From an uncultured Bacteroidota bacterium (GTDB lineage: Bacteria; Bacteroidota; Bacteroidia; Bacteroidales; DTGW01), in the NCBI GenBank assembly GCA_963701015.1, contig OY969556.1, positions 229,186 to 293,185 on the forward strand: DNA of 64,000 nucleotides, read 5' to 3'. Below, piece by piece: positions 24,917 to 55,939 of this stretch. Each line of letters starts with the position of its first letter. Within the stretch, counting starts at the first letter, position 1. The notes under the pieces were generated by a model. That model saw only the letters and a program-made list of their open reading frames with translations. It did not search any database and was not told the origin of the DNA. A program made the position numbers and the translations under genes.

Positions 24917-25123
24917 AAGTATTATTAATTTAGGTTTTGCTTACTCTGTTAACAGCTTTTCAGCAACCGCTGATGATCAATGATTAATAGATGTTTATAA
25001 ATTTCAAACGAATAAAGTAACCTCAATTTTTTATTTTTTTAATAAAATTAGGTCGTATTTTTTCATTTATATAGAATACTGCTTATTTTTATACCTTTTT
25101 GAAAAGCATTAAATTATACTAAC

Positions 25124-37763: not shown

Positions 37764-40430
37764 GTGAAATCAGGCAAGCGAATATCTACTATATCCCATG
37801 GGAAAAAATCATCAACAAAATTGAATAGTAATATTTTTCCTATAGTCGGAATTGGTGCTTCAGCGGGTGGGTTGGAAGCTTTGGAACAATTTTTCGAAAA
37901 TATGCCTTCTAACAATGGAATGGCTTTTGTAGTAATCCAGCACCTCGATCCTAAATATCCCGGTATTTTGCCAGAGCTTTTGCAACGTATAACACCTATG
38001 AAAGTGCAACAAGTGACCGATCTTCTTAAAGTAAAACCCGATTGTGTATATGTAATTCCTCCTAACAAAAGCCTTTCTATACTTAATGGAGCGCTGCATT
38101 TGTTTGCCCCGGTTGAAACACATGGTTTACGTTTGCCAATTGATACATTTTTAAGATCTCTGGCAGATGACAGGCACGAAAAAAGTGTAGCTATTATTCT
38201 CTCTGGTATGGGCTCTGATGGTTTTTTAGGAGTTAAAGCTATTAAAGAAAAAAATGGCACAGTGTTGGTGCAGGAACCTTCCACGGCCAAATTCAATGGA
38301 ATGCCAAACAGTGTTATTGAAGCTGTATTTCCCGATATTATTGCTCCTGCTAACGAATTAGCCATTAAACTTGTCGATTATATGAAATTTGTTCCCTCTA
38401 TTAAAATAAGCAGGGAATTAAATAATAAACATAAAAGCAATATTGATAAAATTATTATTTTGCTCCGCCAACAAACGGGTCACGACTTTTCATTGTATAA
38501 GAAAACTACCTTATTTCGCCGCATAGAACGACGCAAAGGCATTCACCAATTAGATAAGATACAGAATTACGTCCGCTTTTTACAGGAAAATCCTAAGGAA
38601 ACCGAGATACTTTTCAAAGAATTGCTCATTGGTGTTACCAGTTTTTTCCGCGATACTATTGTTTGGCAAACGCTCCGGAATGACATTTTACCTGCACTAA
38701 TAAACCAAATGCCCGACGGCAAAGTTATGCGGGCATGGGTGGCGGCTTGTTCTACCGGTGAAGAAGCATACTCCTTGGCAATTGTTTTTAAGGAGGCATT
38801 GGAAAAAGTTAAAAAGTATAAAAATATATCGTTGCAGATATTCGCAACCGATCTTGATCAGGATTCAATTGATAAGGCGCGTAAAGGTGTATTTCATCCA
38901 AACATTATTGCTGATGTGTCGTCCGAACGCCTTAACCGTTTTTTCATCAAAGAAGCGCATGGATATAGGGTGAATAATGCCATACGTGAAATGATAGTGT
39001 TTGCTCCACATGATATTATTAAGGACCCGCCTTTTACGAAACTCAATATACTAACATGCCGTAATATGCTCATATATATGGAGCCTGAATTACAGAATAA
39101 ACTCATTAGCATGTTTAATTACAGCCTTCTGCCAAATGGTATATTAACGATAGGCACTGCTGAATCACTTGGTACAAAAAAACTAGGATTCATTGAAATT
39201 GATAACAAATTGAAAATTTATAAACGTACTGCAAATATTGATTCACCAGCTCTGATTGATTTTCCCAGCACCTTCAATCGACAAAAAATAAAGAGCAATC
39301 AAAAGAAAGCACCCATGAAAATAGTTGATAATATCCAGAACATTGCCGACCAGATTTTGCTTCAACGCTTTTCACCTGCCAGTGTATTGGTTAACGACAA
39401 AGGCGACATTATATATATAACAGGACGTACCGGAAAGTACCTCGAACCGGTTGCCGGAAAAGCCAACTGGAACATTTTTGCCATGGCACGTGAAGGCTTG
39501 CGTGAGGAGTTACCCGGAGCTTTTCGAAAAGCTATGCAAAACTTCGACCCAGTAATTGTGCATAATATAAAAGTTGAAGATAACGGGGAAATACAATTTA
39601 TTGATTTGAAAATACAACGTATAGAAGCCCCCGATGCTATCAAAGGAATGATTATGTTAGTATTTACAGATATCTCCGCTCCTGCTAAACTTCAGGCAAC
39701 CATATCCAAATCAGGAAAAAGAGGATCAACTTTAGCAATGAAAGAATTAGAAAATGAGCTACAACGGAATCACGAAGAACTTCAAATTACACGTGAGGAG
39801 ATGCAGACATCGCAGGAGGAATTGAAATCGACTAACGAGGAATTACAATCAACCAATGAAGAATTGCAATCGACCAACGAGGAATTGCAATCAGCCAATG
39901 AAGAATTGCAATCGACCAACGAAGAACTCATTACCTCAAAGGACGAAATGAAACGGTTAAACGAAGAATTGCACACAGTTAATTTAGAGCTACAAAGCAA
40001 AGTGAGTGATTTTACATTAGCTAGCAGCGATATGAAAAACTTACTCAACAGTACCGAAATTGGAATTCTATTTCTAGATAAGAATTTGAATATTCGCAGG
40101 TTCACAAATCCAATTACCAAAATATTTAAAATCCGCTGTACCGATATTGGCCGACCATTTACCGAACTGGTGAGCGTTCTGAAGTACCCCCATATTGATA
40201 ATCATGCCCTTCAGGTACTCAAAACACTAATACCCATTGAAACTTCAATAGCAACTGACAATGGTAATTGGTTTACTATTCGTATTTTGCCCTACCGAAC
40301 GGTTGATGATCGAATCGATGGACTCGTTATTACATTTAACGATATAACAGTTGCGAAAAAATTGGAAATTGAACTTAAAAAAGCAAGTATTGAAATACAG
40401 AACCTGGGAAAAGTTAACAGAAAAAAATAA
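37764..40430 (+). CDS. CheB/CheR fusion protein with PAS and coiled-coil regions
   Basis: GIGASAGG and ILSGMGSDG (CheB); VTSFFRD, CSTGEEAYS, CRNMLIY (CheR); EELQSTN heptads. Confidence 0.92.
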   Translation: MKSGKRISTISHGKKSSTKLNSNIFPIVGIGASAGGLEALEQFFENMPSNNGMAFVVIQHLDPKYPGILPELLQRITPMKVQQVTDLLKVKPDCVYVIPPNKSLSILNGALHLFAPVETHGLRLPIDTFLRSLADDRHEKSVAIILSGMGSDGFLGVKAIKEKNGTVLVQEPSTAKFNGMPNSVIEAVFPDIIAPANELAIKLVDYMKFVPSIKISRELNNKHKSNIDKIIILLRQQTGHDFSLYKKTTLFRRIERRKGIHQLDKIQNYVRFLQENPKETEILFKELLIGVTSFFRDTIVWQTLRNDILPALINQMPDGKVMRAWVAACSTGEEAYSLAIVFKEALEKVKKYKNISLQIFATDLDQDSIDKARKGVFHPNIIADVSSERLNRFFIKEAHGYRVNNAIREMIVFAPHDIIKDPPFTKLNILTCRNMLIYMEPELQNKLISMFNYSLLPNGILTIGTAESLGTKKLGFIEIDNKLKIYKRTANIDSPALIDFPSTFNRQKIKSNQKKAPMKIVDNIQNIADQILLQRFSPASVLVNDKGDIIYITGRTGKYLEPVAGKANWNIFAMAREGLREELPGAFRKAMQNFDPVIVHNIKVEDNGEIQFIDLKIQRIEAPDAIKGMIMLVFTDISAPAKLQATISKSGKRGSTLAMKELENELQRNHEELQITREEMQTSQEELKSTNEELQSTNEELQSTNEELQSANEELQSTNEELITSKDEMKRLNEELHTVNLELQSKVSDFTLASSDMKNLLNSTEIGILFLDKNLNIRRFTNPITKIFKIRCTDIGRPFTELVSVLKYPHIDNHALQVLKTLIPIETSIATDNGNWFTIRILPYRTVDDRIDGLVITFNDITVAKKLEIELKKASIEIQNLGKVNRKK

Positions 40431-40559
40431 TTATTATAAGTCAAATACTATGAACAATTAATAAAGTTAACAGTTTAGATAAATGCAAATGCGATAGGAT
40501 ATATTCATAGGAAAATAATTTTCTATAGATTGGGTTTCGGTTTTTAATTAGGTTATGCA

Positions 40560-41822
40560 ATGAAAAAAATCAAAGCACAATTAGGCATCCCAATCTTACG
40601 CACACAAGCGGAACTGATTCTTACAAAGAACCCAATAATGATTTCTTCAGAACTTTCAGAAGTTGGTGAACTCAAACTTATTCACGAACTTGAGGTTCAC
40701 CAGATTGAACTGGAATTACAAAATGAAGAACTCATTCGGGCGAAGGAAGCTGAAAAGGACGCGATTGAATTGTATGATTTTGCTCCCACGGGTTATTTTA
40801 CACTTTCACCAAATGGTGATATTATTGGGTTAAACCTCAATGCCGCATATATGCTTGGTATGGAACGGTCAGCTTTAATTCATAGCAGGTTTCTGCTTTT
40901 CCTATCAATTGATACAAAAGAAATATTCAATCATTTTCTCGAAAGTATTTTTCTCAAAAGGGTTAAAGAGTCTTGTGAAGTAACCATTTCAATTTCAGAC
41001 AAACCGCCAATTTTTGTTAGTCTTACCGGAATTGCTGATTATAACCATGAAAAATGTTTTATTACTGCAACTGATATTACTGAGCGTGAACTCGCTGAGG
41101 AAATTATCAAAATCAGAAACCATCAGCTAGTATTGGCCGATGCCCAAAAAGATCGTTTCATATCTATTCTCGCGCACGATTTAAAAAATCCGTTTGCTTC
41201 AATTCTTGGTTTTTTAGATTTATTGATCGAAAACATTAATGAATATCCTCAGGATAAAATTGAAGAACAACTTTCCATCATTTACCAATCGTCTCAAAAT
41301 GTATTTAAACTTCTCGAAAATTTATTACAATGGTCGCAGACGCAAAGGGGCAAATTAATTTGCGATCCACAAAGCATAAATTTTACTACTATTTGTGATG
41401 AAGTTATTAATAACCTAAGCCTTAATGCAAAGAACAAAAGCATAAATATTGATTATTCCGAAACAAATAATTTAACCGTTTTTGCAGATGCAAATCTTTT
41501 AAAAACTGTGATGCGAAACCTGGTATCAAATGCAATAAAATTTACCAATACCGGTGGAACAATCAATATTTCAGGTATAAGCGACTCCTCAAATGTAACA
41601 ATATCTGTTGCAGATAATGGAATAGGAATAGCTGCTGAAAATATACCTAAATTGTTTGACGCATCGCTAACACATTTAAAAATAGGCACAGCTAATGAAA
41701 AGGGAACAGGTTTGGGATTGTTTCTTTGTAAAAAATTTATAGAGAAACATTGTGGTAAAATATGGGTTGAAAGCGAATTAAATATAGGGACTACGTTCAG
41801 GTTTACGTTACCAGTGGAATAA
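40560..41822 (+). CDS. PAS-domain sensor histidine kinase
   Basis: AHDLKNP H-box, NLVSNAIKF, DNGIG, GTGLGL. Confidence 0.92.
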   Translation: MKKIKAQLGIPILRTQAELILTKNPIMISSELSEVGELKLIHELEVHQIELELQNEELIRAKEAEKDAIELYDFAPTGYFTLSPNGDIIGLNLNAAYMLGMERSALIHSRFLLFLSIDTKEIFNHFLESIFLKRVKESCEVTISISDKPPIFVSLTGIADYNHEKCFITATDITERELAEEIIKIRNHQLVLADAQKDRFISILAHDLKNPFASILGFLDLLIENINEYPQDKIEEQLSIIYQSSQNVFKLLENLLQWSQTQRGKLICDPQSINFTTICDEVINNLSLNAKNKSINIDYSETNNLTVFADANLLKTVMRNLVSNAIKFTNTGGTINISGISDSSNVTISVADNGIGIAAENIPKLFDASLTHLKIGTANEKGTGLGLFLCKKFIEKHCGKIWVESELNIGTTFRFTLPVE

Positions 41823-41846
41823 AATTGCTTTAAAATAATAAGAGCA

Positions 41847-43553
41847 ATGAGAAAAACGAAAGTTAAAGAAACCGAAACAATAACCCTTCGAAATAAAGCT
41901 GAACAAATGCTTAAAGAAGGGCCTTTAAGAATAGCCTCGGAGTATTCCCAATTTGATATATTGAAACTCATTCATGAGTTACAGGTTTACCATATTGAAT
42001 TGCAATTACAGAACGAAGAACTGTTGCTGGCCCATGAACAGGGTATGGTTGCAATTCAAAAATATACCGATTTATACGAATTTGCTCCTATAGGTTATTT
42101 TACTATTTCCTCTGATGGTAAAATAAATGAGCTTAATAAGAGTGGCTCTCAAATGCTCGGAAAAGAGCGATCACAGATAATTGATGCAAGGTTTGACTCA
42201 TTTGTATCATACAATTCAAAATCTACCTTTTCCATGTTTCTTGAAAATGTATTTAGTAGCAATACTATGGAAACTTGCGAATTAAGTTTAACCACTTCGG
42301 GGAAAATACCAATTTATGTTTACGTTACAGCCCTGGCAGAAGAAAATAAAAATTTTTGTCGCCTCACAATGGCAGATATCACCCAGCGCAGGCAAACAGA
42401 AATTGAGCTGATAAAAGCCAAAGAACATGCTGAAGAAAGTGACCGCTTAAAATCTGCATTCCTTCAAAATATAAGTCACGAAATTAGAACGCCTATGAAT
42501 GGTATCATGGGTTTTTCCAAATTAATAACCAAAAATTACAACAACAAGCAGAAACTCGAACAATTCGCTCATATAATAGACCAGCGATGCACTGATTTGC
42601 TCGATATAATAACTGACATACTCGATATTGCCAAAATAGAATCGGGGCAAATAAGTGTTCACATACAGGAATGTAACTTAAACGATTTATTTGATGAATT
42701 AGGTTCCTTTTTTAAAGAATACCAGAAACGCATTGACAAACACCATATAGAATTCAAACTTCAAGTTCATTGCAATGTTTCAAATAAAATTATATTAACC
42801 GATAAAGTTAAGTTGCGGCAAATATTCATCAACTTAATTACAAATGCATTTAAATTTACCGATAAAGGTACAATCGAAGGTGGCTGCACAATTGATGACC
42901 AAAATAAACTTGTATTTTATTTATCCGACACGGGTATAGGCATTCCACCTGACAAACACGAACAAATTTTCAAACGATTCGCACAATTGAGCCAAGGTCA
43001 AAGTCGTTTATTTGGCGGCACAGGTTTGGGTCTGTCAATTGTTAATGGATTGGTGAACTTATTAGGTGGGAAAATATGGCTCGAATCGGAACTCGGTAAG
43101 GGAACTAAATTTTCATTTACTATTCCCGTTCAAACAATGCATCAAATATTGGCTGAACCTATAATTAGTGATGTACCCAGGTATTTCGAATTTAGTGATA
43201 AAACTATTCTTCTTGTGGAGGACGAAGACTACAATGCTGCCTTTATGAAGGAAATACTTTCCGATTCAGAAATAAATATTATATATGCTGAATTAGGTGC
43301 CGATGCTATTCAAATAGCCAAAACGCAATTCCTCGATTTAATTTTAATGGACATTCGTTTACCTGATATGGATGGATTTGAAGTTATGCGGCAAATAAAA
43401 CAACATAATCCGGAAATAAAAATTATTGTCCAATCAGCATATGCCGCCGCTGAAGATATACAAAAGGCATCTGATGCCGGATCGGTTGACTATATATGTA
43501 AACCCATTGATCCCGATATACTATTAACTATGCTAAATAAACATTTAGCATAA
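41847..43553 (+). CDS. PAS-domain hybrid histidine kinase/response regulator
   Basis: SHEIRTPMN, GTGLGL, C-terminal receiver LMDIRLPDMDG...KP. Confidence 0.92.
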   Translation: MRKTKVKETETITLRNKAEQMLKEGPLRIASEYSQFDILKLIHELQVYHIELQLQNEELLLAHEQGMVAIQKYTDLYEFAPIGYFTISSDGKINELNKSGSQMLGKERSQIIDARFDSFVSYNSKSTFSMFLENVFSSNTMETCELSLTTSGKIPIYVYVTALAEENKNFCRLTMADITQRRQTEIELIKAKEHAEESDRLKSAFLQNISHEIRTPMNGIMGFSKLITKNYNNKQKLEQFAHIIDQRCTDLLDIITDILDIAKIESGQISVHIQECNLNDLFDELGSFFKEYQKRIDKHHIEFKLQVHCNVSNKIILTDKVKLRQIFINLITNAFKFTDKGTIEGGCTIDDQNKLVFYLSDTGIGIPPDKHEQIFKRFAQLSQGQSRLFGGTGLGLSIVNGLVNLLGGKIWLESELGKGTKFSFTIPVQTMHQILAEPIISDVPRYFEFSDKTILLVEDEDYNAAFMKEILSDSEINIIYAELGADAIQIAKTQFLDLILMDIRLPDMDGFEVMRQIKQHNPEIKIIVQSAYAAAEDIQKASDAGSVDYICKPIDPDILLTMLNKHLA

Positions 43554-46215: not shown

Positions 46216-46995
46216 ATGAGAAATCTATCTAATGTTGGTCGTATTTTTTATGGCATCTCTATTGTCGTAATAGGGTTGCTTACCATTTATTATCGTGATT
46301 ATCCTTATATGTTAATACCTCAAGAACATCTCTGGATTCCCAATCTTGTATTGTTCGCTTATATTTCCGGAGCTCTGCTTATTTTGGCCGGGGCTTGTAT
46401 TGTTTTTGAAATGAAAATAATTCCAATTTCGTTTGTTTTAGGAAGTGCGCTTCTATTGATATTTTGCTTTTACTTTATTCCATATCAATTTATGGTAAGC
46501 TCGAATTATTTGCATTTTGGTGACTGGGAGAATGCAGCAAAAGAATTAGCATTAGCTGGCGGTGCATTTGTAATTGCCGGCTGCTCCTTAGAAAAAAATA
46601 AAAATACGCTTATAGGGTTTTTGAATAAACTAATGCCTTTTGGATCTGTTTTATTTGCGATAACAATTCTCAGTTTTGGAATTGATCATTTTTTATATGC
46701 CAAAGAGGCATCAGATTATGTTCCATCATGGATACCCTACCATCTGTTCTGGATGTATTTTACCGGCACAGCGCTAATTGGTTCAAGCCTTGCGATTATT
46801 TTGAAAATAAAGGCAGGACTAGCTGCCACTCTTTTAGGTACAATGATTTTAACCTGGTTTATTATTCTTCATATACCCAGGGTGATTACTTCTCCGGTGA
46901 TTTATATTGGAAGTGAAGTTACCAGTGCATTTATAGCGCTTGCATATTGTGGAGTTGCCTTTGTTATTGCCGCAACAGATAAAAGACGACAATAA
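46216..46995 (+). CDS. DoxX-like membrane protein
   Basis: About eight TM segments in two repeats; FGIDHF, VPSWIPYHLFW. Confidence 0.7.
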   Translation: MRNLSNVGRIFYGISIVVIGLLTIYYRDYPYMLIPQEHLWIPNLVLFAYISGALLILAGACIVFEMKIIPISFVLGSALLLIFCFYFIPYQFMVSSNYLHFGDWENAAKELALAGGAFVIAGCSLEKNKNTLIGFLNKLMPFGSVLFAITILSFGIDHFLYAKEASDYVPSWIPYHLFWMYFTGTALIGSSLAIILKIKAGLAATLLGTMILTWFIILHIPRVITSPVIYIGSEVTSAFIALAYCGVAFVIAATDKRRQ

Positions 46996-47001
46996 AACTG
47001 T

Positions 47002-47132
47002 CTGTAACATTAGCGCATATAAAATAAGGGTTTCAGCGGGTTTGCAAGTTCAATGCTATCTAATTACATTTGTGTAGTTGGATTTATATTGCAAGTAAAT
47101 CCCGCAAGGCATTTTAGTCGCGAACGTTGGGC
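47002..47132 (+). repeat. attC-like site (complete)
   Basis: CTGTAAC ... CCCGCA ... cgaac-GTTGGGC (perfect GTTRRRY); 131 bp; starts 6 bp after a stop codon. Confidence 0.8.
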
Positions 47133-47173
47133 GTAATTGAAGAACTTATTGACAGTAAAGTAATTTTATAAGC

Positions 47174-47668
47174 ATGAAAAAGATAATGACTTTATTAGGA
47201 ATTGGACCAAAATTAGTTTTATTCACTTTATTATATTCATTTTTACTAGAAACAGAAATTGAACATTATCATTTTGACATTGCAATAAAGATAGTGCCAT
47301 ACAATTTTTTAGATATAATAGGATTATTATTAATTGTAATAGGATTATTGTTTTTAATTCCATCTTTTATAGCAATAAGTAAATTACGTAAAACGGATAG
47401 ATTATATACAAAAAGGATTTATTCAGTATGTCGTCATCCTTTATACGCAGCATGGATAGTTTTTATTGTTCCGGGAATAATTCTATTATTAAATTCATTA
47501 ATATTATTGACAATTCCATTGGCAATGTATTTTATATTTAGACTATTAATAAAAAATGAAGAGACTATTTTGCTAAATAAGTACAGTGACAAATATCGTG
47601 AATATAAAAATCAAGTAGGATTATTATTTCCTAAGTTTTGGAGATATAAAAATGACAAAGAACAATAG
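47174..47668 (+). CDS. Isoprenylcysteine carboxyl methyltransferase / PEMT family membrane protein
   Basis: IYSVCRHPLY, EE..L..KY...YREYK motifs. Confidence 0.85.
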   Translation: MKKIMTLLGIGPKLVLFTLLYSFLLETEIEHYHFDIAIKIVPYNFLDIIGLLLIVIGLLFLIPSFIAISKLRKTDRLYTKRIYSVCRHPLYAAWIVFIVPGIILLLNSLILLTIPLAMYFIFRLLIKNEETILLNKYSDKYREYKNQVGLLFPKFWRYKNDKEQ

Positions 47669-47683
47669 AATAAATCAACATAT

Positions 47684-48138
47684 GCTCAACTTAAGCTCAT
47701 GCAACACACTCCACCGTTAAGCGTAGTTTGCATCTACGCTTTTTTTATCCTTAGTTTTTAATTAGCGCCTGTCTTTAATATTAACAAACCCTGACAGGCT
47801 TATGCTTAATCAAAGTTCAACAATTATTGAATTCCCTTACAACAAGTTTTGTGAAAAACCCTGTCAGGGTTAATTATCAATGGCTACAGCCTGTTTTATA
47901 AATTAACCGTTATTTATAACCATTCTAAGACATTTATATCAAATAACTTTTTACTTTTAAGGTGAAAATCAGGGGAATTTGTGGGCAGGGTTATTTTAAT
48001 TGTAAAATGAAATGAATTTTATTTTATGACTGTAAAGAATTTATTGAACAAAATAAATAATGCGCCCTATAATGGCAATTATCTGTACATAATTGGAAAG
48101 ACAAGCGCTATGTCATGGTGTGTATTAATAAGTTGTGT
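47684..48138 (+). repeat. Long inter-cassette module, copy A
   Basis: GCTCAAC, REP-like hairpin, AACCCTGACAGG/CCTGTCAGGGTT IR (47787/47860), palindrome 48076-48095, GTTGTGT at 48132. Confidence 0.85.
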
Positions 48139-48159
48139 ACAATACAAATACAAATTAAA

Positions 48160-48726
48160 ATGAGATCGATAATAGTAACTTTAGTAATACTAATTTCTAT
48201 TAAATCATTTAATCAGGAAGGAAAAAAATATGAATATAAAGAAATTGACTGTAAAGATGAGCAAGGAAAGCAGTATGATTTTATTGAAACAAATTTTAAC
48301 GTTGATGGGAGTGTATTAAGTAAAAAAGACTTACATATTGTAAATTATAGAGGTGTAATAGATATTTACTTTTATGCAAAAAAATTTCATTCTTTATTAC
48401 TTCCAGATAAGTTAGTTGACAATAGATACCACAATGATACTATTTTGATCTGGAATTATAAAGGCGATAAAGCGCAAGAATCAAAAAAATCTTTTGCCTA
48501 TGATTCTCTTTCTAGGTTAGTATTGTTTTCTTATTCAGGATGCCAAGTTTGTTCTCAATCTAAATATGATTATAAATTAGAATATGACTTCAAAAATAGA
48601 CCTAAGAACATAATCAATTTAAATGGTAATGACAGATATGAGATAATTTATGACAAAAATGGAGAAGTTACAGAACTTAGAAGTTATTCCTTTAATAAGT
48701 TATATCAAAAAGTAAAATTGAAATAA
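48160..48726 (+). CDS. Hypothetical secreted protein
   Basis: Signal-like N-terminus from ATG 48160; YD-like motifs near the C-terminus. Confidence 0.65.
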   Translation: MRSIIVTLVILISIKSFNQEGKKYEYKEIDCKDEQGKQYDFIETNFNVDGSVLSKKDLHIVNYRGVIDIYFYAKKFHSLLLPDKLVDNRYHNDTILIWNYKGDKAQESKKSFAYDSLSRLVLFSYSGCQVCSQSKYDYKLEYDFKNRPKNIINLNGNDRYEIIYDKNGEVTELRSYSFNKLYQKVKLK

Positions 48727-48735
48727 AAGTACTGT

Positions 48736-48855
48736 GTACAACAACAACTCAAATTCCATGCGGGCTTCAGAATGTTTGCAAGTTCAGAGTTTTCTGTGCA
48801 ACTGGATTTATATTGCAATTAAAACCCGCGCACTAATTAGCCGTAAACGTTGGCG
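48736..48855 (+). repeat. attC-like site (complete, short internal deletion)
   Basis: GTACAAC...TGCGGG...CCCGCG...aattagccgtaaac-GTTGGCG; 120 bp. Confidence 0.8.
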
Positions 48856-48898
48856 GCCAGCAATAAGAACATTATTATTAACTAAATACTAATTTACT

Positions 48899-49771
48899 AT
48901 GAAAAAAATTTCGTTTATTTTCTTATCATGTATATGTACATGTTTGCTTTTTAGTCAAGAAAAAGAGATAAAAGTAAAGAAAGACATTGTTTATCTTGAT
49001 GGAACTCCAGTAGTTAAAATGATTGGGAAATGTGGCGTTTTTACTAGGCTTAATTACACATTCATATCCTTAAAGGGAGATACATTATTTACTATGAAAG
49101 ATAATTTTTATAAATATTCCAACCCTTATTATGGTACAACAACTTGGTTTGACATAAATTTTTTAAAATTAAAGAAGCAATTAATGTTAATCAGAGAACA
49201 TACACTTGTAAACGATAAGCAAGTTGTAAAATATGTATTACTAACATTAAATCCTTTTATTATAAAAGATGGGGAATTAGACACATCAGCAGTTGCCCAA
49301 GTAATACAAAAGCAAGATTATCGGAATACATTTATAGCTGATACGACCTATAAGTTAGGATTTGACAGAAAAAAGAATATGATATTAGACAAATCATATA
49401 TAAAAAGAGACATAAATAAACCCATAATTGTTGCAGATGCAACCATACATCCAGAATTAAAAGGATTTAATAATTATAAATTATATGAAATACAACAGGA
49501 TAAAGTTTTGATTGGATTAATAGTAGAAGTAAATGGAATGGAAACTACATCAAGAAAAATATCATATTACTTTTTACGAAAGTTAAATGAGCCAATGGAA
49601 TATCAAGGAGAGCATTATCCATTTGTAATGGTAGCATTAATAGATGATAGTTTTCAGGGATTTTTAGTTAGTACCTATAAAAAGGAATCTATGTTTTATA
49701 CTGCTCCACAAAACTCTACTAATAAATTTTTAGATTATGCAAAACATTTAGTAGATATTAAAGATTTGTAA
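48899..49771 (+). CDS. Hypothetical secreted protein
   Basis: Signal peptide; 290-aa ORF; flanked by GTTGGCGGCC and GGCCGCCAAC. Confidence 0.75.
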   Translation: MKKISFIFLSCICTCLLFSQEKEIKVKKDIVYLDGTPVVKMIGKCGVFTRLNYTFISLKGDTLFTMKDNFYKYSNPYYGTTTWFDINFLKLKKQLMLIREHTLVNDKQVVKYVLLTLNPFIIKDGELDTSAVAQVIQKQDYRNTFIADTTYKLGFDRKKNMILDKSYIKRDINKPIIVADATIHPELKGFNNYKLYEIQQDKVLIGLIVEVNGMETTSRKISYYFLRKLNEPMEYQGEHYPFVMVALIDDSFQGFLVSTYKKESMFYTAPQNSTNKFLDYAKHLVDIKDL

Positions 49772-49865
49772 TTTTATTAAAAACATTAATTAGCCGGCCG
49801 CCAACATTGGCACAAGCAACATGTACCCCACGCTAATCGTAATATATGAATAAATGAAAAGGTTA

Positions 49866-51693
49866 GAAGGTGTCTCAAAAGTCGAGGCACCTTTTTTTGT
49901 TAATAAAAAGTTCATAAAAAAGGCTCATTAATTTAATCATTTATCTTGTTTAGTTGTCTCATTATCAAAAGTATGAGACATGTATAACCAAAGATCAAAA
50001 GTAGTTTTTAAAGACTACAGTCCCAATCAAATCATGTTACTTCCCCCATCACTGGAGGAGTTCATAGATGCAAACCATCCAGTTCGGGTTGTAAACAAAG
50101 TCATTGACAGTATTAACGCTGATGCATTGCATAAACAATATAAAGGAGGTGGCACCTCAAGCTATCATCCTCGGATGTTGCTGAAGGTTCTTATATACAG
50201 TTACCTGAACAATGTATATAGTAGTCGTAAAATGGAAACAGCCTTAAAAGAGAACATTCATTTTATGTGGCTGAGTGCTATGAACCACCCTGATCATAAT
50301 ACACTTAATCGATTTAGAAGTGATAGGCTCAAAAATGTTTTAAAAGAAATATTTGCACAAGTAGTCATGTTATTAGTGGAATCGGGACATGTAAGCCTTC
50401 AGGAAATCTATGTTGATGGGACCAAAATAGAATCCAAGGCTAATCGTTATACTTTCGTTTGGGGCAATTCCATAAAGACCAATAAGGAGAAAATGGTGGC
50501 ACAACTAAAAGAGTTATGGGATTATACCCAATCGTTAGCCAAAGAGGAATTACAAGATACAGATAATGTTGACTTTACCCAAATAGATGCAGAAAAAGTA
50601 AAACGGACTATTAATCAAATAGATCAAGCATTATCTGATAAAAAGGTTGACAAGAAAGTAAGACAGAAATTAAATTACGCTCGCCAACATTGGCCACAAA
50701 ATCTCAACAAGTACAAGGAGCAAGAGCAGATATTAGGCAAACGGAACTCGTATAGTAAAACAGACCCTGGGGCAACCTTCATGCGAATGAAAGAAGATCA
50801 CATGAAAAACGGTCAGTTGAAACCAGGATATAATGTTCAGATAAGCACTAATAATCAATATATTGTAAACTATAGCCATCACCCCAATCCAACCGATACA
50901 ACCACATTAAGGCCTCATTTGGAACAGTTCCACACCCTGTATAACAATTATCCTAAAGTAGCTGTGGCAGATGCTGGTTATGGTTCAGAAGAAAATTACG
51001 CATTGTTAGAAAAGGCAAAAATAGACGCTTATATAAAGTTTAACTATTTTGACAAAGATCAACGCAAAATTAAGAACTCTCTCAATAGCAATTTATTCTA
51101 CAACTCTGAAAAGAACTGCTACTATTGTCCAATGGGTCAACCGATGAATTACATTGGCTCAATCAAACGAGTTACAGAAAACGGTTTTGAGCAACAAATA
51201 TCTCGTTACCAAGCTATTAATTGCAGTACATGCCCATTGCGTGGAGCTTGTCATAAAAGTAAGAAGAATAAAATAATAGAAATTAATCATAATCTAAACC
51301 GACTAAAGGCCCAAGCATCAGAACGCTTGAAGAGTGAGCAAGGGCTTTACTACCGAAGTAAAAGAGGGGTTGATGTTGAACCCGTTTTTGCCAATATCAA
51401 GTTTAATAAAGGATTTAAGCGTTTTGGACTTAAAGGAATGTTAAAAACAGAAATTGAAATGGGCTTACTAGCGTTGGCACACAATTTAGCAAAAAGAGCA
51501 GCATAGGCTGCTTTGCCATCCTCTTAGGAAGGCAACAAATGTCCTATATCGTAATTATTAAATTATTATCAAAAAAATCTAAATCGATCAAACAAAAAAA
51601 TAATCTACCATAAAACATTTTGATCAGTTCAAAAAAATTCTACGTTTTTTAACCAAAAAAAGACCATCTCATTTTTACTTTTGAGACGGCCTC
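49866..51693 (+). mobile_element. IS1182-family insertion sequence, copy 2 (1828 bp)
   Basis: Same ends and identical 508-aa transposase as copy 1. Confidence 0.92.
49980..51506 (+). CDS. IS1182-family DDE transposase
   Basis: Protein identical to that of 22468-23994. Confidence 0.93.
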   Translation: MYNQRSKVVFKDYSPNQIMLLPPSLEEFIDANHPVRVVNKVIDSINADALHKQYKGGGTSSYHPRMLLKVLIYSYLNNVYSSRKMETALKENIHFMWLSAMNHPDHNTLNRFRSDRLKNVLKEIFAQVVMLLVESGHVSLQEIYVDGTKIESKANRYTFVWGNSIKTNKEKMVAQLKELWDYTQSLAKEELQDTDNVDFTQIDAEKVKRTINQIDQALSDKKVDKKVRQKLNYARQHWPQNLNKYKEQEQILGKRNSYSKTDPGATFMRMKEDHMKNGQLKPGYNVQISTNNQYIVNYSHHPNPTDTTTLRPHLEQFHTLYNNYPKVAVADAGYGSEENYALLEKAKIDAYIKFNYFDKDQRKIKNSLNSNLFYNSEKNCYYCPMGQPMNYIGSIKRVTENGFEQQISRYQAINCSTCPLRGACHKSKKNKIIEINHNLNRLKAQASERLKSEQGLYYRSKRGVDVEPVFANIKFNKGFKRFGLKGMLKTEIEMGLLALAHNLAKRAA

Positions 51694-52105
51694 TTTTTTT
51701 ATCCTTAATTTTTAATTAGCGCATGTCTTTAATATTAACAAACCCTGACAGGCTTATGCTTAATCAAAGCTCAACAATTATTAAATTCCCTTACAATCTG
51801 TTTTGTAAAAAACCCTGTCAGGGTTATTTGTCAATAACTACAGCTTATTTTAAAAATTAACCGTTATTTATACCCATTCTAAGGCATTTATATCAAATAA
51901 CTTTTTACTTTTAAAGTGAAAATCAGGGGAATTTGTGGGCAGGGATATTTTAATTGTAAAATGAAATGAAAATTCACCCTATAATGGCAATTATCTGTAC
52001 ATAATTGGAAATAAAAACACCATGGCATTGTGCTTATATGCAAGTTTTACAAAATAAATCATTAGTCATATATTAAAATTTTAATTATTTTAACACAAAT
52101 TTATT

Positions 52106-52960
52106 ATGAAAAAAATTAGTTTATTTTTAACCTTTATTTTCTTATTTTCAATTGGTTTTTCACAACAAGACTCCCTCTTAAAAAGTAAAAGCGGTAAAAT
52201 AATTTTACCGCAACAAGGTGATTATGCTATTGGATTATCCGTTAATTCAATATTTAATTATTTAGGGAATATGTTTAGTAGTTCTGGGAATAATCAATTT
52301 AATATAAACCTTTTAAATGGGAATCAAATATTCGGAAAATATTTTCTTTCTAGTCAAAGTGCAATCCGTGTAAAATTTTCGATAAACAAAAATTCACAAA
52401 ATTATGAAAACAACGTAGTCGATGATTATAATAATAATAATATGGTAACAGATAAATTAAATTATACGAATACAAGTTTAGATATGACGGTTGGTTTTGA
52501 AAAACGCAAAGGATCAGGTCGCCTCCAGGTTTCATATGGCGCCGAATTTACTTTTGGATATTCTGGTTATGATAATAAATATACTTATGGTAATTCATTT
52601 TCATTCAATAATACCGTTCCTACTTCAACATTTAATTTCTATAACTATAATGGTAATAACACAAATAGTAATCGCACATCAAATCGTATTCTTGAAACTA
52701 AACAAGATAATGGAATAGGAATAGGGATTAGGGCTTTTACCGGCATTGAATATTTTATATTTCCCAAAATATCGGTAGGAGGTGAAATAGGACTAAGTTA
52801 TTTCAATGATTTTAATGGGAAGAGTTCAAATACTTATCAATATTGGGATTATGTGAATAACAATGTTTCAACTAACAACAATGAAATTAAAAATAATTCT
52901 TATAATATTAACACTGACATTTTGAATGGACAGGTTTTTTTACTATTTCATTTTAGATAA
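52106..52960 (+). CDS. Outer-membrane beta-barrel protein
   Basis: Signal peptide, alternating beta strands, GIEYFIFPKISVGGE, terminal FHFR. Confidence 0.75.
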   Translation: MKKISLFLTFIFLFSIGFSQQDSLLKSKSGKIILPQQGDYAIGLSVNSIFNYLGNMFSSSGNNQFNINLLNGNQIFGKYFLSSQSAIRVKFSINKNSQNYENNVVDDYNNNNMVTDKLNYTNTSLDMTVGFEKRKGSGRLQVSYGAEFTFGYSGYDNKYTYGNSFSFNNTVPTSTFNFYNYNGNNTNSNRTSNRILETKQDNGIGIGIRAFTGIEYFIFPKISVGGEIGLSYFNDFNGKSSNTYQYWDYVNNNVSTNNNEIKNNSYNINTDILNGQVFLLFHFR

Positions 52961-52973
52961 AATAAAAGCCAGC

Positions 52974-53382
52974 CTATAACATTAGCTCATACAACACACT
53001 CCCCCGCTATGCGTAGTTTGCATCTACGCTTTTTTTATCTTTAATTTTTAATTAGCGCATTTCTTTAATTTCAACAAACCCTGACAGGCTTATGCTTAAT
53101 CAAAGCTCAACAATTATTAAATTCCTTACAATCTGTTTTGTGAAAAGCCCTGTCAGGGTTATGTGTCAATAGCTACAGCCTGTTTTAAAAATTAACCGTT
53201 ATTTATACCCATTCTAAGGCAATTATATCAAATATCTTTTTACTTTTAAGGTGAAAATCAAGGGAATTTGTGGGTAGGGATAATTTAATTGTAAACTGAA
53301 ATAAAAAATTAAACCTATATTGGCAATTATCTGTACATAATTGGAAAGATAAATTTCATGTTATTTCGCATATAAGTTATTA
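52974..53382 (+). repeat. Long inter-cassette module, copy C
   Basis: CTATAAC, REP-like hairpin 53001-53031, CCCTGACAGG IR, palindrome 53324-53343, GTT at 53376. Confidence 0.85.
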
Positions 53383-53462
53383 GCAACAATTATAGCGTGA
53401 ATCGTAATTAATAATTATTTTGAACAAATATTTTTAATACGACAAATAAACAAAAATAAACT

Positions 53463-54137
53463 ATGGCTCATCAACATCATTATGTAATAATCAAAGGTGA
53501 AAATGGCAATCCAAGTCAGCATCCTCTTAAGACTTGGGTAAGACAAAACTTAAATTTTTTACCTCAAGGACTTGACCCCGACTTTCAAACATCTCATAAA
53601 GTTAGACGAATACTATCACAAAACGGGTGGCATTTAGAATTCACAGACACCGAAGTATTTGTTATTAGGCCGGATGACAATGGAAATTTTGATTATACGA
53701 ATAATTATGTTGCAGAAATTCAAAAAGAAGAAGATGATGAAATAATGGAGAATGAAGACGCATATGAAATTACTTTTGGTCTTGAAAAAGATTTACAATC
53801 TGCACTTCGTAAAAATATTGAATCATTAGAAAAAGGACTGACAATTATCGATGATGGGAAAGAGAGAACTACAATAGCTGGCAGAATTGATATTACAGCA
53901 AAAGACAATGCCAATCGGACTGTTATTATAGAACTAAAAGCTGTTGATGCAAAACCAGATGTAATTGCACAAACTTTGGCTTATATGGAAGCGGTAAAAG
54001 CGGAAGACAAAGTTGAAGTACGTGGAATAATTATAACAAGCGGTTTCCCTGACAGGGTTAAATTAGCAGCAAGACAAATTAGTAATTTAAAACTTGTAAA
54101 ATATTCTTTTCAATTTACTTTTAACATTATTGAATAA
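53463..54137 (+). CDS. Protein with C-terminal NucS/EndoMS-like PD-(D/E)xK nuclease domain
   Basis: LEKDLQ..L...GRIDITAKD...VIIELK...Q...Y motif; unknown N-terminal domain. Confidence 0.8.
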   Translation: MAHQHHYVIIKGENGNPSQHPLKTWVRQNLNFLPQGLDPDFQTSHKVRRILSQNGWHLEFTDTEVFVIRPDDNGNFDYTNNYVAEIQKEEDDEIMENEDAYEITFGLEKDLQSALRKNIESLEKGLTIIDDGKERTTIAGRIDITAKDNANRTVIIELKAVDAKPDVIAQTLAYMEAVKAEDKVEVRGIIITSGFPDRVKLAARQISNLKLVKYSFQFTFNIIE

Positions 54138-54193
54138 AATATAACATTACGAATAATGAAAAGAATAGTGTCTCAGATGAAAATTATAAATGC

Positions 54194-54322
54194 CACCAAC
54201 ATCGTCATATAAAATGCGGGTTATAGAGCGGTTCAAGTCTATTGCTTTATAATTATATTTGTTTAGTTGGTTTTATTTTGCAAGTAAATCCCGCACTAAG
54301 TTGTAGTCGGGGAAAGTTATGT
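54194..54322 (+). repeat. attC-like site (complete)
   Basis: CACCAAC-atcgtcatataaaaTGCGGG ... CCCGCA...tagtcggggaaa-GTTATGT; 129 bp. Confidence 0.8.
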
Positions 54323-54349
54323 CGCATTAATAATAAAAATACTGTTACA

Positions 54350-55939
54350 ATGATACAAGATAGATTAATTATGCAGGCTGTTTCAAAAATTCATCAGCGT
54401 GCAGATAGACAAGAAAAAATTGAAAAGATAGTAAATACCTATGTTGAGATAGGTATTTTGCCACAACTATTGAATAAAAATAATCAAATAATTTATGGCA
54501 GACGAGGAACTGGAAAGACTCATATATTAAGAAAACTTGAGGATGATTTAATTAAATCAAAGGATGAGAAAAATCTTGTAACATATATAGATGCAAGATA
54601 TTTGGGAAGTAGCCCCCAATATACTGATACAGCTTCATCTCTTAGAGTTCGCTGTCAATCATTGTTTAATGATGTTCTAAAGGAAATATACTATACAATT
54701 CTTCAACATTTAATTGAATTTCCTAACGAAAACGCAAATCGAGCATTTGATGCACTTGAAAATTTTAATAAATCAAGCAATGTTGAGATTTATTCTTCAA
54801 AATCTATTTCACAAAAAGAACAAATTGCTAATAAGGATAGTTCGAATGCTGGTATAGATATATCTCCAAATACTATTGCAATAAAGTTTGGTGCATCTTC
54901 AATTGAAGAATTAAATAAAGAGCGAACAATTACTTATAGCATAGAAGATGAACAAAAGATTTTATTTCCTGACATTAATTTCTTTCTAAAAAGTGTTCTT
55001 GAATTATCAGATACTAATTTATTCCTTTTATTTGATGAATGGGCTACTATTCCTTTTGATATCCAACCTTATTTGGCTGAATTTTTTAAACGTAGCTTTT
55101 TGCCAAACCAAAGAATTACATTAAAAATTGCATCATTGGAATATAGGTCAAACTTTACAATCCCCAAAGAGAAACATAATTATATAGGTTTTGAATTGGG
55201 TAGTGACATAGCAACTAATTTAGATGTTGATGATTACTATGTTTATGATAGAAATCCAAAGCATATTTCAGATGTATTCGCTGAAATATTATTTAAACAT
55301 ATTGAAAGTGAACTTCCAGAAAATTACTTAATCTCAAATTATAATATCTCAAATTCTAAAAAGTTTATTCAAACTATTTTTACCAATATAAATGTTTTTA
55401 ATGAACTTGTTAGAGCAGCAGAGGGTGTAATTAGAGATTTAATAATTATTTTTTCAATTTCGTTTTTTGATTCTCAAAGATTCAGTCGTAAGAATATTGA
55501 TAAAAAAACAATTATTGAGTCAGCAAGACAATGGTTTGAAAAGGATAAAGCTAAAAATCTCGATGAAAATTTACAAGATATACTAAGAAGAATAGTTGAT
55601 GAAGTTATTGGAACACGCAGAGCTCGTTCTTTTATGATTCCTCGTGATTTAGAGAAACATGATATAATACAAAAATTATTTGATTCAAGGGTTTTGCACT
55701 TAATAAAAAGAGGCTATGCTGATAAAATAAATCCGGGTATAAGATATAATGTTTATACTTTAGATTTTGGTACTTATGTTGACCTTATACAGACAAGTAA
55801 AGAGCCGGAAATTGACTTTACTAATTCAGAAATTAGTGAAAGTGAAGAATTTATTGTACCATTTGATGATAAGAGAAGTATTAGAAGAATAATTCTGACA
55901 GAACAAATTTTTAACGCCCATACTGGCACGAGTTTATAA
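54350..55939 (+). CDS. P-loop ATPase (ORC/CDC6- or STAND-like) of unknown function
   Basis: Walker A GRRGTGKT, Walker B LFLLFDE; start set to ATG 54350. Confidence 0.8.
   Translation: MIQDRLIMQAVSKIHQRADRQEKIEKIVNTYVEIGILPQLLNKNNQIIYGRRGTGKTHILRKLEDDLIKSKDEKNLVTYIDARYLGSSPQYTDTASSLRVRCQSLFNDVLKEIYYTILQHLIEFPNENANRAFDALENFNKSSNVEIYSSKSISQKEQIANKDSSNAGIDISPNTIAIKFGASSIEELNKERTITYSIEDEQKILFPDINFFLKSVLELSDTNLFLLFDEWATIPFDIQPYLAEFFKRSFLPNQRITLKIASLEYRSNFTIPKEKHNYIGFELGSDIATNLDVDDYYVYDRNPKHISDVFAEILFKHIESELPENYLISNYNISNSKKFIQTIFTNINVFNELVRAAEGVIRDLIIIFSISFFDSQRFSRKNIDKKTIIESARQWFEKDKAKNLDENLQDILRRIVDEVIGTRRARSFMIPRDLEKHDIIQKLFDSRVLHLIKRGYADKINPGIRYNVYTLDFGTYVDLIQTSKEPEIDFTNSEISESEEFIVPFDDKRSIRRIILTEQIFNAHTGTSL

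Follow-up and report, generated by a model that had tools for sequence, protein, structure and literature searches.

Cassette arrays of integron type in an uncultured Bacteroidota bacterium (GenBank assembly GCA_963701015.1) carry, at junctions between cassettes, repeated non-coding modules whose 3' part, here called the P-module, ends exactly at the G|TT crossover point and is homologous to sites at the heads of the three largest arrays of the same genome; the part of a module that copies the head site covers its last 100-250 bases. We consider it probable, at roughly 55%, that P-modules are internal copies of an attI-like docking platform that stands at the array head, putative promoter included; new genes thus seem to have not one but many points of entry into a single array. 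The modules came to attention as three copies (A, B, and C) in a stretch of 64,000 nucleotides (contig OY969556.1, positions 229,186 to 293,185, forward strand), referred to below as the window and numbered from its first letter. An initial annotation of the window had proposed that the three copies represent a second, attI-like class of recombination site or an integrase-less miniature platform that had multiplied inside the array; this proposal is supported for the 3' part ending at GTT, given the homology of the head sites and the split-site rule, and is not supported for the ~400-bp module as a single element.

Cassette arrays of the genome

The window is held by a complete genome of 4.47 Mb (G000), in which a profile of the attC-like repeat gave 222 matches in 19 clusters. 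The large arrays lie at ~1.72-1.81, 1.97-2.10, and 2.69-2.75 Mb; array sizes are 42+15, 46+38, and 35 attC sites by this profile, and the array part in the window (30355-54332) has 7. AAC and GTT stand at the expected columns in 171 of the 186 near full-length attC sites, and neighbouring sites obey the split-site rule (e.g., R' GTTAGGCCA and R'' of the next site TGGCCTAAC), including perfect cases of 9/9; the array units are thus genuine integron-type cassettes. The consensus of the standard attC left arm is AACATCGGCTCAT, and the same attC family is also present in several Bacteroidota metagenome-assembled genome records.

P-modules inside arrays and homologous sites at array heads

P-modules are 200-255 bp long, and 14 full and 3 partial copies were found in G000. 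All 17 are interleaved and co-oriented with attC sites, and the S3 profile at E<0.01 gave no match outside arrays or array heads. GTT ends 12 of the 14 full copies, and beyond the GTT the copies are unrelated in sequence. Two direct repeats, spaced 45 bp apart, make up the last ~95 bp; each is composed of a CCATN3ATGG box and ~13 nt, and the second runs into the G|TT. Short forms have one repeat and long forms have two. Repeat 1 contains a 20-bp palindrome with a 7-6-7 layout (CAATTAT-N6-ATAATTG), the right half of which, ATAATTGG, mirrors the junction CTAGTTGG; in the nine long-form copies the arms of the palindrome are conserved and its 6-nt spacer is variable. Box 2 lies 13 nt from the crossover point in nearly all copies, and boxes 1 and 2 lie 31-32 nt apart in the internal copies, the heads, and G003, a genome from a different genus of the same family; the intervening sequence differs. 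Two junctions have the last ~95 bp of the P-module, namely a compact junction of ~100 bp with this part only (j2731, genome 2731541-2731631) and j2732 at 2732494, which has a different hairpin filler. The copy c4330 is located 327 bp behind a tRNA-Ser, with non-cassette DNA upstream.

The same design was found at genome positions 2689886(+), 2104869(-), and 1809864(-), i.e., each of the three largest arrays has it at its head. Over ~190 bp up to the GTT, heads 2689 and 2104 are near-identical, and exactly after it they diverge; no attC lies beyond the site within 15 kb at heads 2104 and 1809. A profile built from 12 internal copies only finds head 2689 at E 6.8e-6 (positions 4-99) and the other two heads only at E 0.12-0.15. 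The position expected of an attI site, at the head of an array and upstream of the first cassette, is thus occupied by sites homologous to the P-module; the three window copies themselves are internal.

Crossover at G|TT and comparison with attC folding

The split-site rule also holds at the GTT of the P-site, the putative docking site of the P-module, where the start of the following cassette complements R'' at the end of that cassette in at least 8/9 positions at 8 of 19 sites. Four of these are perfect (c4333 and heads 2689 and 1809, 9/9; G003, 10/10) and four match at 8/9 (c2733, c3826, c2753, and p3107); copy A reaches 7/9. By our own arithmetic, the chance per site of at least 5 of 6 free positions matching is ~0.005. 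Cassettes thus join, as at an attI site, at the G|TT of a GTTRRRY-type core, with a start that complements their own R''.

In our assessment it is unlikely, although several observations fit, that everything from R'' to GTT (300-460 bp, or ~100 bp for the compact form) instead makes up an attC of a second, giant class, owned by the upstream cassette and mobile together with it. Junctions begin with an R'' box, and among 12 junctions examined this box complements the start of the upstream cassette in at least 7/9 positions in five (B and c2730, 9/9; c3826, 8/9; A and c3108, 7/9), as the R''/R' ends of an attC do; homology among the copies begins at R'' and stops at GTT; a compact junction exists (j2731); and the unit stands behind unrelated genes, as attC sites do. 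Folding speaks differently. Pairing of the left arm (AAC plus 32 nt) with the right end (32 nt plus GTT), compared with shuffled and non-cognate controls, gave -4.5 to -10.3 kcal/mol (z +0.7 to -2.1) for all eight P junctions, which is no better than shuffled or non-cognate arms, as opposed to a median of -16.9 kcal/mol (z -4.7) for 171 standard attC sites, 88% of which have z<-2. The compact forms fold into local hairpins only, and the z of -2.2 of the compact junction comes from small palindromes, not from pairing of its ends. The L''/L' hairpin of an attC is hence absent from the P junctions, a cognate arm-pairing signal for a giant attC was not obtained, and the P-site is not an attC; the statement in the initial annotation that the right end is unlike an attC right arm is borne out in 8/8 junctions. 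Further, the three heads, G003, and c4330 have no left arm and stand behind non-cassette DNA, and the left arms elsewhere are cut at differing lengths (12-30 nt), and no fewer than five unrelated fillers stand behind them. The lack of arm pairing together with the heads without a left arm suggests that the P-site probably acts as double-stranded DNA rather than as a folded palindrome.

Composite make-up of the three window copies

Alignment of A, B (right of its insertion sequence [IS]), and C confirmed three repeated non-coding modules in the order of parts given by the initial annotation. The copies are ~90% identical and near-identical from the T-run to the palindrome; the 20-bp palindrome CAATTATCTGTACATAATTG is invariant in all three, its end lies 37, 37, and 33 nt from the G of GTT in A, B, and C, respectively, and the arms of a 12-bp inverted repeat are 60 bp apart, all as previously described. 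With nhmmer E values of 5e-42 to 5e-66, the window copies are far above chance. Their features are as follows.

Copy A, 47682-48134
47682..47715 (+): R'' box ATGCTCAAC (47682-47690) with the short attC left arm of the upstream ICMT-like cassette, similar to the attC left-arm consensus
47721..47746 (+): terminator-like hairpin GCGTAG-N7-CTACGC with T7, read in the sequence
47763..47880 (+): MITE-like repeat S1, right side truncated, with two palindromes AACCCTG(A/T)CAGG(G/C)TT, the 12-bp inverted repeat of the initial annotation
47903..48134 (+): P-module, long form with AT hairpin (nhmmer E 4.7e-66; S3 profile E 1.6e-22)
47948-47990: promoter-like block TTTTTACTTTTAA...GGGGAATTTGTGGGCAGGG
48066-48097: direct repeat 1, including the palindrome; direct repeat 2 ends at G|TT (G at 48132)
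Copy B, 49797-52046, with the IS inside
49797..49865 (+): R'' box GCCGCCAAC (49797-49805) and left arm up to the IS; left arm homologous to the left part of c3108
49866..51693 (+): IS, IS1182-type by Pfam domains, outside the module proper
51706..51856 (+): S1 repeat and linker (alignment, repeat searches)
51857..52046 (+): P-module, AT hairpin deleted; palindrome 51988-52007; G of G|TT at 52044 (nhmmer E 1.9e-47; S3 profile E 1.9e-19)
Copy C, 52972-53378
52972..53036 (+): R'' box GCCTATAAC, left arm, hairpin (53011-53029), and T-run
53052..53191 (+): S1 repeat and linker (alignment, repeat searches)
53192..53378 (+): P-module; palindrome 53324-53343; G of G|TT at 53376 (nhmmer E 5.4e-42; S3 profile E 1.4e-15)

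BLAST and profile searches split the module into three joined parts with separate distributions in the genome, and the ~400 bp are therefore a composite, not one element, as had been assumed; the module consists of a truncated attC left arm (followed by a hairpin in A and C), the miniature inverted-repeat transposable element (MITE)-like repeat S1, and the P-module. The left arm, a remnant of the attC of the upstream cassette, comprises the R'' box and 12-30 nt of the standard attC left arm. In copy B, R'' GCCGCCAAC is the exact 9/9 complement of the start of its own cassette, GTTGGCGGC; in copy A, R'' complements the start of the upstream ICMT-like cassette, GTTGGGCGT, in 7/9 positions; in copy C the match to the upstream cassette start is 5/9 only, counted by eye. 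The hairpin GCGTAG...CTACGC with T7 found in A and C recurs at genome positions 3108626, 3111318, and 4034819, and at ~3111.3 kb an attC left arm is followed by this hairpin with no P-module behind. A GC-rich hairpin, CAGGGTCTCCCGAAGAAGACCCTG, recurs immediately behind truncated attC left arms and ahead of platforms at G000:C1:2688219, 2732440, 4330600, and 4333870, and attC sites consisting of the left arm only are frequent at array ends or before a head (G000:C1 2756027, 2635630, 2688219, and ~3111300).

Copy A is ~42 bp longer than B and C by an AT-rich hairpin, which is kept in most other members of the family, so that B and C carry a deletion. A ~1.8-kb IS, encoding a 508-aa transposase (DDE_Tnp_1_6, DUF772, DDE_Tnp_1), splits copy B where A and C have the GCGTAG hairpin. 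Metagenome contigs of 1838 and 1828 nt span this IS (49865/6-51696/3); over 46900-54400, metagenome contigs include ends of the IS and no joints, with cover too low for alternative cassette orders. The same IS interrupts head 1809, inside the head site of the 1.72-1.81 Mb array (~1809.9-1811.7 kb of G000:C1), where it has removed repeat 1, and ~25 copies of it are apparent in the genome from a recurring identical weak match.

The inverted repeat noted initially corresponds to two 15-bp palindromes, AACCCTG(A/T)CAGGGTT, ~75 bp apart in S1, a separate repeat of ~175 bp with solo copies in ordinary intergenic DNA at G000:C1:819409, 1935361, 1952630(-), and 3114224. By eye, three to four of these have terminal inverted repeats (GAGYMTGTC...GACAAACTC) and TA flanks. 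Dispersed copies, terminal inverted repeats, and TA flanks, i.e., the hallmarks of a MITE, are thus present or likely for S1, which appears to be a MITE-like passenger and would have inserted a single time, into the copy from which A, B, C, c3108, and c2723 descend.

These features raise the question of whether the module as such is a non-autonomous mobile element, a MITE or a derivative of an IS, that targets attC sites and displaces their right halves. IS1111-attC elements are among the elements known. Apart from the MITE-like character of S1, this explanation can draw on the IS, which has struck two platforms, and on group IIC introns, for which an association with integrons is reported in the part of the literature considered here (PMC7923331). 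The P-module, however, was found genome-wide to have neither terminal inverted repeats nor target-site duplications nor any copy away from arrays; its orientation is invariably that of the attC sites, its end lies at the G|TT crossover, an attC right half is absent behind it, and no larger element containing it was found in the genome. An ordinary MITE, the alternative that had been named as fatal to the platform proposal, is therefore matched by S1 only (solo copies, terminal inverted repeats, TA flanks) and not by the P-modules, with 17/17 in arrays and 12/14 with GTT; the reading of an attC-targeting MITE applies to S1 only, and for the module it is very improbable.

A promoter-like block in the P-module

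The best-conserved part of the P-module is an AT-rich/G-box block, TTTTTACTTTTAA-N16-AATTTGTGGG, which is kept in G002, a further genome with a P-module; G003 has TATATTTG in a comparable place, ~120 bp before the GTT. Bacteroidota σA promoters have the consensus TTTG at -33 and TAnnTTTG at -7, and a check by eye gave partial matches only (GGAATTTG; TACTTTTA). With low confidence, the block TTTTTACTTTTAA...AATTTGTGGG may be an outward promoter for the DNA behind the GTT. A structured RNA (i.e., a riboswitch or leader) was considered and rejected; RNAalifold on 12 P-modules gave -8.06 kcal/mol with a double change in 2 of 28 pairs, and Rfam at gathering thresholds, run on the whole window, had no match in the modules.

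The conserved block could also mean that the P-module is a transcription unit boundary, composed of a terminator and a promoter or leader and copied by homologous recombination among the many repeats and playing no part in site-specific recombination, with cassettes having entered a favourable GTT by chance. A terminator-like hairpin does precede the P-module in A, C, and c3108, a co-oriented open reading frame (ORF) starts 26-87 nt behind the GTT in the three window copies, and genomic secondary sites, to which this scenario can be likened, are treated in the portion of a preprint drawn on here (bioRxiv 10.1101/2022.09.11.507474). We nevertheless regard a boundary as improbable, if less so than a mobile element, as cassettes are also bounded by junctions that have the last ~95 bp without the upstream conserved block (j2731, j2732, and the G003 head), the spacing from box to crossover is fixed at 13 nt across genera, the identity between heads stops exactly at GTT, and the consensus RNA structure and covariation expected of a leader are absent.

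Occurrence in related genomes

In G003 (locus L040), the P-site follows a divergent gene, and the two-gene cassette behind it ends in the R'' with the 10/10 match. In G002 (locus L041), a P-module begins 290 nt behind a complete attC, an arrangement expected if a platform-bearing circle had entered an attC. BLAST with the P-module gave weak matches in 3 of 9 other genomes of the family, and a sequence-only covariance model (R1), searched in 10 relatives, gave a match in G003 and weak matches in G004. A narrow P-site pattern found only four copies of the genome itself and G003, and scans with the P-module core pattern gave 0 matches in genome_contigs and 0 in metagenome_contigs. Matches of R1 on contig G003:C60 were set aside as unconvincing; they lie within a large inverted duplication beside a gene resembling extracytoplasmic function (ECF) sigma factors. 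This duplication (L118, 1100-4060) comprises an ECF-sigma-like and YceI-like region, named by reading the sequence, with a weak, outward P-site-like palindrome at each end, and may be an assembly artefact.

Recombinases and the weight of the evidence

Longer versions of the module with a tyrosine recombinase gene, for which the initial annotation had suggested a search, were not found genome-wide. At the scale of the order, 3 of 201 genomes have IntI, and the DNA flanking intI in these three gave no match to the attC or P-module profiles. None of the Xer-like genes examined has an attC or P-site beside it. Two copies of an insertion of ~22-24 kb, each directly adjoining an attC, break the two largest arrays (G000:C1:1771040-1772254 and 2018361-2019575); both start with a gene for a 404-aa recombinase, followed by similar genes, and the insertion is possibly an integrative element with attC sites as its target. 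The 404-aa recombinases were considered as IntI and rejected, being of Arm-DNA-bind_5/SAM_5/Phage_integrase type.

Several findings weigh against reading P-modules as copies of an attI-like platform. The adjacent divergent intI of an attI site is lacking in G000, and no IntI above the TIGR02249 cut-off was found in G000 or in five genomes with the same attC family; the best score, 214.7 bits against a cut-off of 265, belongs to a 372-aa Xer-like protein (G000:C1, ~3281 kb) without the IntI insert, located 1.2 Mb from the nearest head and with no attC or P-site beside it. Nor does a recombinase gene lie beside the heads, judged by the flanking ORFs, which are mutually unrelated and absent from the recombinase-like matches of the genome. 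Head 2689 has two weak attC-like matches 1.7 and 3.1 kb upstream. At 10 of 19 sites there is no complementary downstream R'' of at least 7/9; ATT or TTT replaces GTT in two full P-modules, and direct repeat 2 of copy C is degenerate and 4 nt shorter. Since R'' complements the upstream cassette start in the five junctions named above, the repeat unit spans exactly R'' to GTT, as an attC would. By eye, the promoter-like block agrees only in part with the Bacteroidota -7 consensus TAnnTTTG, the P-module turned up in a single family, in 3 of 10 genomes, and the orphan attC left arms are a weak point, as site-specific recombination cannot make a left arm without a right one.

Proposed mechanism

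According to the docking-platform reading, each module would mark the place where a cassette with only the left arm of its attC remaining meets an internally located copy of the array-head platform. A recombinase encoded elsewhere would bind the two direct repeats on duplex DNA, and the same enzyme would handle attC; the platform would then exchange strands at G|TT with a free cassette at its folded attC, and new cassettes would come to lie directly behind each platform. Circular platforms might use their own site to integrate at attC sites and would survive only where the upstream attC had lost its crossover half, because they would otherwise be excised again; we infer such attC truncation. 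No paralogous cassettes showing an "empty" or intact version of a junction were found. A more general version of this scheme, which we put forward tentatively and hold to be doubtful as it stands, although less so than a giant attC, is that of multi-headed arrays, in which a mobile "platform cassette" made up of an attI-like site and a promoter would enter an attC as a circle, become fixed once the crossover half of the upstream attC is lost, and then serve as an extra point of entry and expression deep inside the array, acted on by a distant recombinase other than IntI.

Other features of the window and genome

A three-gene unit of 6 kb in cassette position (window 37764-43553), flanked by attC sites at window 34164 and 43572, encodes a CheB-CheR fusion with a PAS domain and two histidine kinases. 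Elsewhere in the genome, a 498-aa ORF (G000:C1:1856049-1857546 (-)) occupies a cassette position between an attC and the P-module c1855; its C-terminus is IMP-dehydrogenase-like by eye. The only Rfam match in the window was a DUF805b RNA at 24938-24973 (-), with 38.9 bits against a gathering score of 35.6.

Significance and comparison with known systems

A single complete genome offers here ~20 natural variants of a candidate docking site (head sites, internal copies of both long and short form, and degraded ones) together with ~220 attC sites, and this variant set is a ready mutational series for what the array recombinase recognises. Functional internal platforms would mean that cassettes far from the head do not have to be silent and that cassette entry is not restricted to the head; models of expression and turnover in large chromosomal arrays would change if this were true.

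The attI1 site of class 1 integrons, ~65 bp in length, is composed of a simple site and the direct repeats DR1 and DR2, with the promoters Pc and P2 nearby. The P-site resembles attI1 in that its crossover lies at the G|TT of a GTTRRRY-like box and in its upstream direct repeats, which are candidates for recombinase binding, and it may likewise have a promoter directed towards the cassettes. Unlike in attI1, these repeats, spaced 45 bp apart, are CCATN3ATGG boxes of palindromic form, conservation extends over a unit of ~190-250 bp, no intI is adjacent or present elsewhere in the genome, and there is no sequence similarity between the two sites. Whereas an integron has one attI, G000 has 14 full and 3 partial internal P-modules in addition to three heads. 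As in attI sites generally, as far as these are covered by the passages of PMC9024848 drawn on here, the P-site is non-palindromic, of double-strand type, and its design is found at the head of cassette arrays; the same passages of this report on IntegronFinder 2.0 describe integrons as rare in Bacteroidetes and attI as poorly described outside class 1.

With attC sites and the Vibrio cholerae repeat (VCR)-type repeats of sedentary chromosomal integrons, P junctions share their location between cassettes, the G|TT end, an R'' that complements the start of the cassette ahead, and the occurrence as a family of similar copies behind unrelated genes. They differ from attC sites and VCRs in that their ends are non-complementary, they are 3-4 times longer, and they also occur at heads without a left arm.

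Finally, clusters of attC sites lacking an integron integrase are defined as CALINs in the passages of PMC9024848 considered, which give almost 6 attC per CALIN; since attC sites are present and IntI is absent, the arrays described here are CALINs by that definition. Unlike the CALINs surveyed there, they comprise 222 attC matches, with arrays of up to 46+38 sites, a cassette complement without integrase that is unusually large for a Bacteroidota genome. The perfect 9/9 split-site complementarity argues against the arrays being old debris, and, unlike CALINs, these arrays keep a recognisable head site.

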